This document shows, piece after piece, positions 12,641-16,705 of a DNA stretch of 64,000 nucleotides. This DNA comes from Paraliomyxa miuraensis (GTDB taxonomy: Bacteria > Myxococcota_A > Polyangia > Nannocystales > Nannocystaceae). Both the position numbers and the translations under genes were made by a program. The notes under the pieces are model-generated. The model had not been told where the DNA came from and searched no databases. It saw only the letters and a program-made list of their open reading frames with translations. How positions within the stretch are numbered: the first letter of the stretch is position 1; the number at the start of each line of letters is the position of its first letter. The stretch covers positions 57,015-121,014 of the forward strand of contig NZ_JAOVZF010000146.1 of the NCBI RefSeq assembly GCF_026337845.1, read 5' to 3'.

Positions 12641-14059
12641 TCACCGCAGACCCAGCCTACGGAGCTTGCGCTTGAGGGTGTTGCGGTCGATCGCCAGCGC
12701 CCGAGCGGCGCCCATGAGGCTGCCCTCGCGTACCAGGGCCTCGCGGATCACCTGAGCCTCGAGCTCGCTCACCGCCTCGGCCAGGGTGCGGGGCGACGAG
12801 GGGAGAGTCGTGCGCGCGGGCCCGGGGCGAGCGTCTGCTGCGAGGCCGGGGCGAGAGCCCGCAGCGGGAGCGGAGTCGTCCTCGGCGAGCGCTCGTAGCT
12901 GCGGCGACAGGTCCTCCACCTCCACCCGGTGCTCGCAGAAGACGGTCCATCGCACCACCTCGGCCCGAAGCTGTCGTACGTTGCCCGGCCACGCGTAGCT
13001 CCGAAGGCAGCGCCAGGCGGCAGGGGTGGGCCACGGGCGCGGGCCGGACAGCTCGTCGAGGAAGAACGCCACCAGGCGCTCGAGATCGGCCCCGCGCTCG
13101 CGCAGCGGCGGCACGTGCAAGGTGGCGCCGGCCAGCCGGTAGTAGAGGTCCTCGCGGAAGTCCCCGCGCGCGACCAGCTGCGGCAGGTCGCGATGGGTCG
13201 CGGCCACCACCCGCACGTCCACGTCGATCGACCGCTCGCCCCCCACCCGCCGCAGCGTGCCCTCCTGCACCACCCGCAAGAGCATGGCCTGCACGCGGGG
13301 GCTCATCTCGCCCACCTCGTCGAGGAACAGGGTGCCGCCGTCGGCCTGCTCGAACAGCCCGCGGCGCCGCGCCTGCGCGCCCGTGAACGCGCCGCGCTCG
13401 TGTCCGAACAGCTCGCTGGCCAGCACGCCCTCGGCGAACGCCCCGCAGCTCTCGGCCACGAACGGCCCGCTCGCCCGCTCGCTGGACTCGTGGATGGCAC
13501 GCGCCACCAGCTCCTTGCCCGTGCCCGTCTCACCCTGCACGAGCACGGGCACGTCGCTGCGCGCCACTCGGAGCAGCCGTCGCGACAGCTCGTGCATGGC
13601 GGGGCTGTCGCCCACGATCGAGCGCCGGCCGGCCGCACGCAGCCGCACGACCTCTTCCTTGAGCGCGCGGATCTGCGGGAAGCCCTCGATCTCGAGCCGC
13701 ACCTCGCGGATGGGGTGCGGGTGCACCGACGGCACGAACGCGGGCGGGATCACCTGCAGCATGCGCGCGGGCAAGAGGCCGGCCTCGACCATGATCACCC
13801 ACAGCGTCTGCATCTGCGGCGTGCCGGCCGAGAGGCACACGTCCAGCGGCACCGGGGGCAGGCCCTCGGTGACGCCGTGGAGCGCGGCGAAGACCTGCGC
13901 GTGATCGCTGGGGTCCACGATCGGCAGCACGCGAAGATCGGCCGACGTTCCCCGGGCGAGGATCTCGGCGAGTCGCCGCTGTGCCGCCGGCTCGCCCTGC
14001 GGCGAGGTCAGCAGCCGCACGTGCTGGTACTCGACCTCGCTGTGGTCGAGCAGCCGCAT
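12641..14059 (-). CDS. rtcR: Sigma-54-dependent transcriptional activator, RtcR-like (non-receiver N-terminal domain, AAA+ sigma-54 interaction domain, C-terminal HTH)
   Basis: Sigma-54 interaction domain with GETGTGKE, GAFTGA and the ESELFGHERGAFTGA motif, and a C-terminal Fis-type HTH. The N-terminal 150 aa is not a canonical receiver domain. The gene is divergent from rtcB. Start set at MRLLDHSE.... Confidence 0.8.
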   Translation of the reverse strand: MRLLDHSEVEYQHVRLLTSPQGEPAAQRRLAEILARGTSADLRVLPIVDPSDHAQVFAALHGVTEGLPPVPLDVCLSAGTPQMQTLWVIMVEAGLLPARMLQVIPPAFVPSVHPHPIREVRLEIEGFPQIRALKEEVVRLRAAGRRSIVGDSPAMHELSRRLLRVARSDVPVLVQGETGTGKELVARAIHESSERASGPFVAESCGAFAEGVLASELFGHERGAFTGAQARRRGLFEQADGGTLFLDEVGEMSPRVQAMLLRVVQEGTLRRVGGERSIDVDVRVVAATHRDLPQLVARGDFREDLYYRLAGATLHVPPLRERGADLERLVAFFLDELSGPRPWPTPAAWRCLRSYAWPGNVRQLRAEVVRWTVFCEHRVEVEDLSPQLRALAEDDSAPAAGSRPGLAADARPGPARTTLPSSPRTLAEAVSELEAQVIREALVREGSLMGAARALAIDRNTLKRKLRRLGLR

Positions 14060-14250
14060 CAACGGACCGCGATCGGGCGGCTCTCCGCCCTTGGATGGCG
14101 GCGGCTCGCCCCGCACGGTGGTGCTGCGGTCGGACCAGGTCAGCAGGCAGCGCGACATGGTGTATCACGCACCGTCAGCGGTGCATGATGTACCGTATCA
14201 ACACGGTGCATTGTGCACCATTACCACAAGAAAGCTCAATGATTCCATGG

Positions 14251-14266
14251 TGGCACGGGATCTGCT
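14251..14266 (+). promoter_or_regulatory. Sigma-54 (-24/-12) promoter candidate TGGCACgggatCTGCT upstream of rtcB
   Basis: TGGCAC, then 5 nt, then CTGCT fits the YTGGCACG-N4-TTGCW consensus. It lies between rtcR and rtcB, as expected for an RtcR-controlled promoter. Confidence 0.5.
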
Positions 14267-14281: not shown

Positions 14282-15511
14282 ATGGGCACTCCCAGCATCC
14301 ACGCCGCTCCCGAGGTCTCGGTGATCGAGGGTCCCGGCGTTCACATCGAAGTCGACGCGGTCTCGCAGCTGCGTCGAGTCGCCGGCCTTCCGGGGTGCGT
14401 GCGTGCGGTGGGCATGCCCGATCTGCACCCGGGCCCGGGCATCCCCATCGGCATGGTCACCGCCTCGGCCACCCACGTGCATCCCACCCTGGTGGGCAGC
14501 GACGCGGGCTGCGGGGTCACGGCCGTGGTCACGCGGCGCGTGGTGCCGCAGGCCAAGCAGCTGCGGCGCATCGAGCGAGCCACGGTGGATCCCGATCCCT
14601 TGCCGGTCGATTCCCTCGAGGCGCTCGAGGCCGCCTGGCACGGAGGACCACGCGGCTTGGCCAATCTCGCCGGCATGCCCGAGGCGTTCGGCGAGTGGGT
14701 CGCCACGGTGCCATGGGGCGAGCCCCTCGGCCCGAGCGGTCCCATCCCCGAGGCGCTGCACGAGGCTCGCTTCGGCGAGGCGCTCGGCACCACCGGCGGT
14801 GGCAACCACTTCATCGAGCTCGGTCGCGTGGACCAGGTGCTCGACGACGACGCCCTGCCCGGCCTGCGCCGCGGGGCGCACGTGGTGATGGCCCACTCGG
14901 GCTCGCGCGGCCTGGGCTATGCGCTGGTGCAGCGCTGGCAGGAGCGAGCGCTCGGCGAGCCCGAGGAGATCGCCACCTACCTCGGCGAGCTCGCTGGCTG
15001 CTGCCGCTTTGCGCAGGCCAACCGCGCCTTGCTGGTGTGGCGGCTGCTCGAGGCGGTGGGCGCCGCCCGGGTCGATCGCCTCGGCGGCACCCTCGATCTC
15101 GTGCACAACGACGTGCGTCCCGGCGAGAGCCCGCAGGCACCGTGGGTGCACCGCAAGGGGGCCGCCCCCGCCCGTGCGGGCGAGCTGACCATCACCCTGG
15201 GCAGCCGCGGCAGTCCCAGCTGGATCCTCCGCGGTCGCGGCGACCAGGCGCACCTGTGCTCGGTGGCCCATGGTGCGGGTCGACGGATTCCCCGTGCCGA
15301 GGCCAAGGCTCGCCTGTCCCATCGCTACCGACGAAGCGATCTCACCCGCACGCCGCTGGGCGGCCACGTGCTGTGCGACCGCCAGGAGCTGCTGTGGGAG
15401 GAGCACCAAGACGTCTACAAGCCCATCGAGCCGGTGGTGGCGGCTCTCGAGCAGGCCGGGGTGGCCACCCGCGTGGCGGCCCTCGTGCCCCTGGTGACGG
15501 TGAAGCGATGA
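14282..15511 (+). CDS. rtcB: RtcB-family RNA 3'-phosphate ligase (short RtcB2-type, 409 aa)
   Basis: Conserved GGGNHFIEL, HNDV and HGAGR motifs. Translationally coupled (ATGA) to prfH. The annotated ATG is only about 16 nt after the sigma-54 -12 element, so the true start may be the GTG at about 14321 (V14), which has a GAGG 5 nt upstream. Confidence 0.9.
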   Translation: MGTPSIHAAPEVSVIEGPGVHIEVDAVSQLRRVAGLPGCVRAVGMPDLHPGPGIPIGMVTASATHVHPTLVGSDAGCGVTAVVTRRVVPQAKQLRRIERATVDPDPLPVDSLEALEAAWHGGPRGLANLAGMPEAFGEWVATVPWGEPLGPSGPIPEALHEARFGEALGTTGGGNHFIELGRVDQVLDDDALPGLRRGAHVVMAHSGSRGLGYALVQRWQERALGEPEEIATYLGELAGCCRFAQANRALLVWRLLEAVGAARVDRLGGTLDLVHNDVRPGESPQAPWVHRKGAAPARAGELTITLGSRGSPSWILRGRGDQAHLCSVAHGAGRRIPRAEAKARLSHRYRRSDLTRTPLGGHVLCDRQELLWEEHQDVYKPIEPVVAALEQAGVATRVAALVPLVTVKR

Positions 15512-16167
15512 GCACCCTGCACACCCTTCGAATCGGGGCGGGCCGCGGTCCGCGAGAGGCCCGACGCTTCGTGGTCATGCTGACGCAGGCGCTGTGCGAG
15601 CGCCTGCAGGCCAGCGGAGCCCAGGTCGAGGCGATCGAGGCGCACGGCGATCCCAGCGCCCCCGGGCGCGTGCTCGTGCGCGTGCGCGGTGATGGATCCG
15701 GGTTGAACGGCTGGGTGGGCACGCACCAGCTCACCGCCGACCTGCGAGGGCCTCATGCGCGGCGTCGCTGGTTCGCGGCCATCGAGCACGATCGTCCGGA
15801 GGGCTCGGCGCCGATCGTACTGGCACGGTCCGACCTCGAGATCCGCTTCGTACGCTCGCGTGGGCCCGGCGGCCAGAACGTGAACAAGCGATCGACGGCG
15901 GTGCAGATCACCCATCGGCCCACCGGGATCGCGGTGCAGCACGACGCTCACCGCAGCCAGTCCCGCAACCGGGCCGCGGCGCTGCAGGCCCTGCAGCGCG
16001 CGGTCACCCGACACCTCCACGAGGCCCAGGCCTCGACCCGCGCGCTCGAGGCCTGGCAGGCCCGGCGCGACCTGCCCACCCATCGACCCGTGATGCAATG
16101 GCAGCTCGATCCCCATCGGCCGGACACGATCGTTCCACAGACTCAGAAGGCTTCCAATGCGACGTGA
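15508..16167 (+). CDS. prfH: Peptide chain release factor homologue PrfH (RF-H)
   Basis: GGQ motif (RSRGPGGQNVNKRSTAVQITH). About 219 aa, truncated relative to RF1/RF2. ATGA overlap with the rtcB stop. Confidence 0.85.
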   Translation: MSTLHTLRIGAGRGPREARRFVVMLTQALCERLQASGAQVEAIEAHGDPSAPGRVLVRVRGDGSGLNGWVGTHQLTADLRGPHARRRWFAAIEHDRPEGSAPIVLARSDLEIRFVRSRGPGGQNVNKRSTAVQITHRPTGIAVQHDAHRSQSRNRAAALQALQRAVTRHLHEAQASTRALEAWQARRDLPTHRPVMQWQLDPHRPDTIVPQTQKASNAT

Positions 16168-16705
16168 CATGGACAAGGTGCTGTGCGAGCGCCCCCGCGG
16201 AGGCATGCGGGTCAAGCGACGCAGCCGTGCGCGCGGGCGCTCGAGCCTCTCGCGGATCCCCGGTGCACGCATGGCGCTGCTGCCGTGGGAGGACCATCCA
16301 CGATTCGAGCCCATCAGCCGGCATCGCGGCGGTACCAAGTGGCTCGGCGAACACCTGGGCCCGCTGCGTCGCTGGCTGCTCTCGCAGGTGGGTCGGCGCT
16401 GGGACGACGTCTACTCCGAGCTGCGCGCCAACATCAGCCCCAACAACGCAGTTCAGCTCCACATCTGGCAGCACGCCCAGCACTACGTGGCCCGCGCCGT
16501 GGCGCTCGTGGGCGGCAAGCCCCATCACGACCTCGGTGACGATCGAGCGTATCGGCGGGGCCATCCCGTGAGCGCTCGTCAGTGCCCGGTCTATGTTTGC
16601 CCACGAAGTGGGATCGTCCGCCGTACCCCCGTGACCCCCCGCAAGAAGAAGGCCAAGCCGAGCGAGCAAGCGTCGGGAGAGCGCCGCGCGATGATCGTTG
16701 GGTGA
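16157..16705 (+). CDS. Hypothetical Arg-rich protein, possible third gene of the rtcB-prfH operon
   Basis: 182-aa ORF with high GC3 overlapping the prfH stop by 11 nt. No domain recognised. Confidence 0.4.
   Translation: MRRDMDKVLCERPRGGMRVKRRSRARGRSSLSRIPGARMALLPWEDHPRFEPISRHRGGTKWLGEHLGPLRRWLLSQVGRRWDDVYSELRANISPNNAVQLHIWQHAQHYVARAVALVGGKPHHDLGDDRAYRRGHPVSARQCPVYVCPRSGIVRRTPVTPRKKKAKPSEQASGERRAMIVG

Follow-up and report, generated by a model that had tools for sequence, protein, structure and literature searches.

Two described systems bear most closely on the locus considered here. The RtcB2-PrfH operon is known from Escherichia coli ATCC 25922 and its relatives (Tian et al. 2022, PMC9304027; Maviza et al. 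2022/2026, PMC9223846, PMC13166195), and the rtcBA operon of E. coli and Salmonella is controlled by the activator RtcR together with sigma-54 (Genschik 1998; PMC9650030; PMC7790460), using in E. coli an upstream activating sequence (UAS), an integration host factor (IHF) site, and a -24/-12 box (PMC9650030). Elements of both are joined in a module at positions 12641-16705 of a 64,000-nt stretch, hereafter the window, of contig NZ_JAOVZF010000146.1 of Paraliomyxa miuraensis (GCF_026337845.1), where a gene for an RtcR-like activator is divergent from rtcB, prfH, and a third open reading frame, ORF3. Sequence comparison identifies this locus as a conserved cassette that combines an RNA-damage-type activator with an RNA ligase, a release factor, and a third basic protein. 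The RtcB2-PrfH pair and the RtcR-sigma-54 logic were each already established; their combination with a defined enhancer and ORF3 is new, and no connection between RtcR and PrfH was found in the literature searched. To our knowledge, RtcB2-PrfH is the only bacterial way to reverse cleavage of the decoding center of the ribosome. The same module is also present in the cultured strains Enhygromyxa salina DSM 15201 and Nannocystis exedens DSM 71 and is therefore directly testable.

The likeness to the E. coli RtcB2-PrfH operon lies in the first two genes behind the control region, which are the same pair in the same order. The rtcB gene (14282..15511, plus strand) encodes a putative 3'-phosphate/5'-OH RNA ligase of 409 amino acids (aa) that matches the Pfam RtcB family (PF01139; 5.9e-67, residues 29-408), and its metal- and GMP-binding motifs (MPDLHPG, GSDAGCGV, GGGNHF, HSGSRG, and HGAGR) are intact and align with those of the Thermus and Pyrococcus RtcB structures. 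The protein scores higher against E. coli RtcB2 (35% identity, 202 bits) than against RtcB1 (30%, 118 bits) and remains below the cut-offs of the NCBIfam models TIGR03073 release_rtcB (244 versus 271.8 bits) and NF007153 (293 versus 407 bits). By these comparisons the ligase is nearer to RtcB2 than to RtcB1 and is a divergent member of the family, not a close orthologue. A first-pass annotation of this DNA, all of whose elements were recovered at their coordinates in the open reading frame list and the raw sequence, had called it a short RtcB; the length is correct, but the protein is not short in comparison with E. coli RtcB1 (408 aa) and RtcB2 (379 aa). The prfH gene (15508..16167, plus strand) encodes a release-factor homologue of 219 aa that matches Pfam RF-1 (5.2e-24) and, like its E. 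coli counterpart, has the GGQ motif and lacks RF domain 1. Its best NCBIfam match is TIGR03072 prfH (96.5 bits, below the cut-off of 166.65), and its best match in the Protein Data Bank (PDB) is PrfH of C. gingivalis (9mor, 4.9e-16), with RF2 close behind this best match and E. coli PrfH (7sa4) at 4.2e-11; at 31% identity to E. coli PrfH, it too is, by sequence, a divergent member of a known family and not a close orthologue. The ATG of prfH overlaps the TGA of rtcB by 4 nt (ATGA, 15508-15511), as in E. coli and in the related loci L001 and L003 (L numbers denote the loci of the neighborhood comparison described below). Both the identification of the pair and its coupling, as first annotated, are borne out. 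The E. coli operon differs in more than these low identities and sub-threshold scores, as rtcB2-prfH there lacks an RtcR, a sigma-54 box, and a third gene, whereas the window has all three and, in addition, a predicted near-leaderless start.

The control of the operon is comparable to that of rtcBA, with a divergent CARF-AAA+-helix-turn-helix (HTH) activator, UAS sites, a -24/-12 box, and RtcB as the first product. The activator gene (12641..14158, minus strand) encodes a 505-aa sigma-54 enhancer-binding protein with a divergent N-terminal CARF domain, an AAA+ domain carrying GAFTGA in the translation, and a C-terminal HTH. It matches Pfam Sigma54_activat strongly (PF00158, 1.4e-68), the RtcR CARF family marginally (PF06956, 23.3 bits versus a cut-off of 23.1), and HTH_8 slightly under the cut-off (20.9 versus 22 bits), and the PADLOC model RtcR_PspF2--CARF_AAA_HTH covers it end to end (residues 3-504, 4.9e-132). 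BLASTP identity to E. coli RtcR is 34% over residues 78-407, a range that includes part of the CARF domain (78-139). The regulator did not reach the NCBIfam equivalog cut-off for RtcR (NF038308; 334 versus 650 bits) and is therefore called RtcR-like and not RtcR; the earlier label holds for an activator of the RtcR type and not for an equivalog of the E. coli protein. The window thus differs from rtcBA in having a regulator of the RtcR_PspF2 subfamily, in lacking rtcA, and in placing an RtcB2-like ligase gene ahead of prfH and ORF3. RtcR homologues are also wired to CoCoNuT type IV restriction and restriction-modification superoperons (PMC11090510, PMC4012209), where they are likewise reused as RNA-damage-responsive switches beyond rtcBA; the targets there are nucleases and restriction systems, whereas the target in the window is a repair and rescue operon. 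A protein search with the RtcR CARF domain returned 20 myxobacterial proteins, most of them partial, and RtcB-PrfH adjoined the regulator in all three of the RtcR-centered contexts that were read, with ORF3 detectable, in degenerate form, in one. On the contig of P0271, an RtcR-like gene and its divergent RtcB-PrfH stand back to back with another module, a canonical RtcA-RtcB operon accompanied by a second, full RtcR, so that two RtcR-controlled repair modules lie next to each other, neither of which has ORF3.

The control region between the divergent genes is 123 bp long and contains a sigma-54 box at 14251..14266 on the plus strand (-24 TGGCAC, -12 CTGCT; TGGCACgggatCTGCT / TGGCACGGGATCTGCT). 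No other match to TGGCAC-N6-TGC occurs in the 64 kb, where 0.92 are expected, so that its occurrence by itself is no rarer than chance; its position between the two genes is, however, the appropriate one, and orthologous loci conserve it, TGGCA(C/T)-N5/6-(T/C/G)(T/G)GC being found at the corresponding position in most relatives linked to RtcR. This conservation was read from aligned sequences, with regular-expression matches in seven loci and also in L007, L008, L010, L057, and L067. The canonical spacing of the -24 GG and -12 GC and the phylogenetic conservation agree with the promoter as first annotated.

Three inverted repeats lie upstream of the box. Dyad 1 (14159..14173; GGTGtatcacGCACC / GGTGtATCACGCACC) directly abuts the rtcR ATG, dyad 2 (14180..14194; GGTGCatgatGtACC / GGTGCATGATGtACC) is 21 bp from dyad 1, and dyad 3 (14205..14219; GGTGCAttgTGCACC / GGTGCATTGTGCACC), a perfect palindrome, is 25 bp from dyad 2 and has its center about 41 bp upstream of the -24 GG. 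The consensus in the window and its relatives is GGTGC-N5-GCACC. Only six such sites, allowing up to one mismatch, occur in the 64 kb, and three of them fall within 61 bp, which is very unlikely to have arisen by chance (Poisson probability of about 2e-3 over the whole window, by our estimate). The palindrome had been noted before as part of a candidate enhancer, accompanied by a half-site, CGGTGCAT (14179-14186); the palindrome and the enhancer are supported, the latter by phylogenetic conservation, but the half-site belongs to the full dyad 2, and the enhancer comprises three complete dyads. The DNA between rtcR and rtcB was aligned for 11 related loci, reached through ORF3 homologues, and the triplet proved to be kept in all 13 RtcR-linked relatives of the comparison, with spacings of 20-21 and 23-25 bp. 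The carriers are Nannocystaceae-type metagenome-assembled genomes (MAGs; L007-L012), Myxococcota/Polyangiaceae (L041, L055, L057, and L067), a Polyangia MAG (L075), and a Holophagales (Acidobacteriota) MAG (L018). E. salina has a GGTGA-N5-TCATC version ahead of its operon and no adjacent rtcR. The intergenic region of E. coli rtcBA differs, since no GGTGC-N5-GCACC dyads were found upstream of that operon, whose leader is about 40 nt long. The first dyad adjoins the rtcR start in all RtcR-linked relatives, and by analogy with other enhancer-binding proteins its position against the start codon suggests autoregulation of rtcR. NorR-type enhancers reportedly consist of three dyad sites upstream of a sigma-54 promoter (Tucker et al. 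2010, NAR), and the dyads of the window, about two helical turns apart, would similarly suit nucleation of a hexamer from three dimers, although NorR belongs to another protein family with another DNA motif and the sites in the window are predicted. Between dyad 3 and the -24 box, a CAATGATT element (14237..14244) is kept in seven loci of the Nannocystaceae clade; conceivably it is an IHF-like site, or else the -35 element (TTG) of an rtcR promoter that runs divergently on the opposite strand.

From the usual 12-nt distance to the box, transcription is predicted to start near 14277. This geometry puts the start about 5 nt before the rtcB ATG, so that the 5' untranslated region is probably about 5 nt long and the mRNA near-leaderless. 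In the Polyangiaceae relatives L057 and L067, the leader is longer and includes a Shine-Dalgarno sequence, and the near-leaderless start would therefore be clade specific. The first-pass annotation had instead favored a downstream GTG as the start of rtcB, a proposal that comparison with the relatives does not support. The ATG, which lies within CATCATGGGCA, is invariant in seven related loci and in E. salina and always stands 17-18 nt beyond the -12 C, and length differences in the variable stretch that follows are all multiples of 3 nt, the distance from ATG to MPDLH being 42-44 codons. The N terminus of E. coli RtcB2 is MGNY, sharing MGN with the window protein, and residue 12 of the one aligns with residue 12 of the other. 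Initiation at the in-frame GTG at 14321, with the conserved CATCATGGGCA as an untranslated 5' leader or initiator element, would accord with a GAGG 5 nt upstream of that codon in the window (GAGG-N5-GTG), with the lack of space for a Shine-Dalgarno sequence before an ATG 5 nt from the transcription start, and with the annotation of a later rtcB start in the relative L001. It is nevertheless improbable in view of the invariant ATG, the in-frame indels, and the match to E. coli RtcB2, and the GTG itself is replaced by TTG in L007 and has no spaced Shine-Dalgarno sequence in the others.

The third gene, ORF3 (16157..16705, plus strand), encodes a basic protein of 182 aa with 39 Arg and Lys residues and a predicted isoelectric point (pI) above 11. 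Its ATG at 16157 overlaps the prfH stop (16165-16167) by 11 nt and is preceded at 6 nt by a Shine-Dalgarno-like AGAAGG; in relatives the two genes are separated by 3-31 nt. A search of 5.8 billion proteins returned 244 homologues (E<=1e-3), and a profile built from 94 members matched 4,726 representative clusters at E<=1e-3 and 3,537 at 1e-10 among 1.84 billion proteins. An N-terminal MRxDMxKV(L/I)(C/V)ERPR motif is kept from the first ATG across the family, and on this sequence evidence ORF3 is a real gene. The family occurs in two forms, a short form of about 150 aa in Myxococcota and a dominant two-domain form of about 250 aa, mainly in Planctomycetota, and has one invariant Cys and no Cys pairs; all 94 members checked are basic (median pI of 10.7). 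Residues 29-43 of the window protein (16241-16285) form a 15-residue insertion, SSLSRIPGARMALLP, shared among the aligned homologues only with the 92%-identical P0001. Apart from the weak matches mentioned next, neither the single sequence, nor the 94 members, nor nine longer or fused representatives matched Pfam, no match was obtained in NCBIfam, PHROGs, PADLOC, or a profile search of PDB sequences, and no description of ORF3 was found in the literature searched. Weak matches of 17 of the 94 members to Pfam Turandot, an insect stress peptide (best, 8e-5), were treated as spurious and are probably a compositional or helical coincidence. AlphaFold2 predicts a three-helix core followed by two beta-hairpins with confidence (pLDDT) above 90, and it gives the conserved basic N-terminal 60 residues low confidence and the long form an additional, confident C-terminal alpha/beta domain. 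A Foldseek search with ORF3 against the PDB returned no match, and from the predicted model ORF3 is possibly a winged-helix nucleic-acid-binding protein.

The genomic neighborhoods of ORF3 were compared in 80 loci centered on its homologues, with 8-kb flanks, a sample that is biased toward ORF3-containing loci and includes MAG loci that can be fragmentary. An RtcB gene lay within 3.5 kb of the homologue in 26 of the 80, which is roughly 80-fold over chance by our estimate for a few RtcB genes per 10-Mb genome, and 24 of these 26 RtcBs were RtcB2-like; an RtcR-like gene was present in 13 of the 80 loci. ORF3 follows prfH in L001-L003, L007-L012, L019, L041, L055, L057, and L067. The complete arrangement, RtcR divergent from RtcB-PrfH-ORF3, was found in 10 loci, and E. 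salina has RtcB-PrfH-ORF3 with no adjacent RtcR. PrfH is missing from the order in the Holophagales locus L018 (RtcR divergent from RtcB-ORF3) and in L024 and L068 (RtcB-ORF3). ORF3 comes first, as ORF3-RtcB-PrfH, in five Nannocystis species and the metagenome L096 and, as ORF3-RtcB, in L013/L088, L062, L066, and L086, and L075 has RtcR divergent from ORF3-PrfH with no RtcB in 16 kb. Five independent loci carry RtcB2 and ORF3 without PrfH in the flanks examined; an example of an RtcB2-ORF3 operon that lacks PrfH is the Nannocystaceae BC1.173 locus. The linkage of ORF3 to rtcB recurs in Myxococcota, Acidobacteriota, an alphaproteobacterial MAG, and a Planctomycetota MAG, with reading frames that overlap or nearly abut. 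The third ORF had been suggested as a new operon member, and this is upheld: far from being absent from orthologous operons, it trails prfH in the relatives and is RtcB linked across several lineages and gene orders. In the neighborhood comparison proposed along with that suggestion, ORF3 and RtcR are conserved in related operons and are both lacking in the E. coli rtcB2-prfH operon. As a whole, the comparison of genomes bears out most of the first annotation and goes beyond it. By its distribution in sequenced loci, ORF3 is a frequent, not an obligatory, partner of RtcB. In the Planctomycetota MAG L079 (7500-9900), ORF3 lies between an RtcR-like enhancer-binding protein gene on the opposite strand and an RtcB with 63% identity to E. 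coli RtcB1; since the partner is RtcB1-like, the family is not strictly tied to RtcB2. A long ORF3 stands alone in the Gemmataceae loci L004-L006 (6001-7854), where genes for a DUF6036 protein, an ECF sigma factor, and a kinase come after it and no RtcB or PrfH occurs within 6 kb.

Accessory genes have been described for RFH (PrfH)-RtcB loci. These "RFR" accessories include a TPR protein, a Pol-beta nucleotidyltransferase, a zinc ribbon (ZnR) plus charged-helix protein, and a charged helical protein without homologues, and uncharacterized charged proteins near RFH-RtcB have been predicted to contact rRNA (Burroughs and Aravind 2019, PMC6514570). By description, ORF3 resembles such accessories in being an uncharacterized, positively charged protein beside PrfH-RtcB. 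It differs from the ZnR class as described there in having no zinc ribbon, one invariant Cys, and no Cys pairs. The family of ORF3 is shown here to be large (4,726 clusters) and to be linked to RtcB2 without PrfH as well.

The favored reading, to which we assign a probability of about 0.6, is that the locus, in a Nannocystaceae-like myxobacterium, is an operon for the rescue and repair of ribosomes that is inducible by damage, with regulation, expression, and action as follows. Its starting points are the family-level gene identities, the conserved cis-elements and linkage, and the start codons obtained by comparison. The RtcR-like activator would bind as three dimers, by analogy with NorR and other enhancer-binding proteins, to the three dyads centered about 65, 90, and 111 bp upstream of the predicted transcription start. 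Its CARF domain would sense a putative RNA-damage signal, whereupon the activator would remodel sigma-54 RNA polymerase at the -24/-12 box. The resulting near-leaderless mRNA, beginning about 5 nt before the rtcB ATG, would carry three translationally linked genes. PrfH would enter the A site of ribosomes whose 16S rRNA, the presumed substrate in this host, has been cut in the decoding center and would release the peptide, and the RtcB2-like ligase would then reseal the rRNA. ORF3 is pictured as a lineage-specific third component with a folded core of three helices and a beta-hairpin and with flexible basic tails; its role is putative in its entirety, and it may bind rRNA or the damaged 30S or 70S particle and aid subunit splitting, hold the cut ends, or recruit the ligase. 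If so, a defined, phylogenetically footprinted switch of CARF activator, three dyads, and sigma-54 box would imply an RNA-damage signal as the inducer of ribosome repair, and a leaderless-type start could be important for expression in cells with damaged ribosomes.

A nucleic-acid- or ribosome-binding accessory role in repair is our tentative preference for ORF3, because the RtcB2-PrfH model leaves unclear whether extra factors split damaged 70S ribosomes before RtcB2 acts on the 30S subunit (PMC9304027) and because charged proteins in such loci have been predicted to contact rRNA (PMC6514570). ORF3 is a candidate third component that covaries with RtcB2 even where PrfH is absent. A bolder and more doubtful version holds that the ORF3 family as a whole consists of ribosome- or rRNA-binding partners of RtcB2 that supply this "additional factor," whether they split or hold the damaged 30S subunit or recruit the ligase, and could replace PrfH in RtcB2-ORF3 operons, the whole operon being expressed from a sigma-54-driven, near-leaderless mRNA. 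In that event, ORF3 would be the founder of a large and as yet unnamed family of basic proteins, with at least 4,700 clusters at 50% identity, and translation of the near-leaderless mRNA would be independent of the anti-Shine-Dalgarno 16S end that is cut off by the ribotoxin.

Several observations weigh against these proposals, and some of them favor other explanations. RtcB, PrfH, and the RtcR-like protein are all below the NCBI curated equivalog cut-offs, and with just 31-36% identity to the characterized E. coli proteins their substrate and signal may differ. It is conceivable, though rather unlikely, that the module repairs or rescues damage other than 16S cleavage of the colicin E3 type, such as cleaved tRNA, tmRNA, or mRNA or non-stop ribosomes, and that the RtcB2-PrfH label is overstated. 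The shortfall of RtcB and PrfH against the prfH-linked family models points in this direction, as do the nearly equal score of PrfH to RF2 at 31% identity to E. coli PrfH, the existence of a PrfH subfamily that also rescues intact non-stop ribosomes (PMC12829566), and the reported response of Salmonella RtcR-type sensors to tRNA fragments (PMC7790460). However, the ligase scores nearer to RtcB2 than to RtcB1, the characterized system has the same gene pair in the same order with the same ATGA coupling, and PrfH of the window is without the basic tail at the C terminus that is described for the dual-function subfamily, when compared with the description in PMC12829566. The near-leaderless start in turn depends on a predicted sigma-54 start site.

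The remaining difficulties concern ORF3. No relative of known function was found for it by fold or by sequence, and the weak winged-helix resemblance of the model would suit a DNA-binding regulator equally well. ORF3 might thus be a small winged-helix transcription factor, a feedback repressor or co-regulator whose linkage to rtcB reflects local regulation, an explanation that we regard as unlikely. About two-thirds of the ORF3 homologues, mostly the 250-aa form of Planctomycetota, have no RtcB or PrfH within 8 kb, and the family is therefore not dedicated to the module. ORF3 is absent from the E. coli rtcB2-prfH operon and from two RtcR-linked rtcB-prfH loci, and in a PrfH-centered sample with many short contigs it accompanied only 1 of 15 metagenomic rtcB-prfH pairs among the matches listed; it is therefore dispensable for the core reaction. 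An enhancer-binding protein was found in the available flank of none of these 15 pairs. Since RtcR and ORF3 are missing from E. coli rtcB2-prfH and from nearly all of the metagenomic pairs listed, both are lineage-specific additions. ORF3 could even be a functionally unrelated passenger on a mobile rtcB cassette, as the flanks of the cassette differ among relatives, which fits horizontal transfer, and most homologues do not adjoin RtcB. This is highly improbable, given that the linkage recurs over phyla in different gene orders with overlapping or near-abutting frames and that 26 of 80 loci is so far above the chance estimate. The accessory role proposed for ORF3 remains the one that we tentatively favor.

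A possible fourth small gene of uncertain membership follows ORF3 (16793..17011, plus strand; 72 aa from an internal ATG, or 82 aa counted from 16763). It had no family match and was absent from the relatives other than L008 (6681-6908) and L009 (8565-8780), where small open reading frames 52-54% identical to it directly follow ORF3 amid differing flanking genes; by this comparison it is a candidate fourth member of the module among the closest relatives. The gene that is convergent to the module, at 17008-17892 (minus strand), encodes a Ser/Thr protein kinase. Clustering had suggested a kinase as a conserved partner of ORF3 in 26 loci; only 11 had it directly upstream on the same strand, namely five Nannocystis species and a few Planctomycetota, with 6 of the 11 from one Nannocystis lineage, and the kinase was rejected as too lineage bound for a partnership.

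Upstream of rtcR, two minus-strand genes encode Cys-rich proteins of 314 aa (9971-10915) and 546 aa (11004-12644), the latter without a Pfam match, and both have signal-peptide-like N termini and many C-G-N-G...D-G-x-E-x-C-D-G repeats. Scans of the region for Rfam families, tRNAs, sigma-70 promoters, and terminators returned nothing relevant to the module, and its composition profile was without anomaly. The sole Rfam and ARAGORN matches in the window are tRNA-Ser(GCT) (32825-32912, minus strand) and tRNA-Arg(ACG) (33928-34002, plus strand), which are unrelated to the module.

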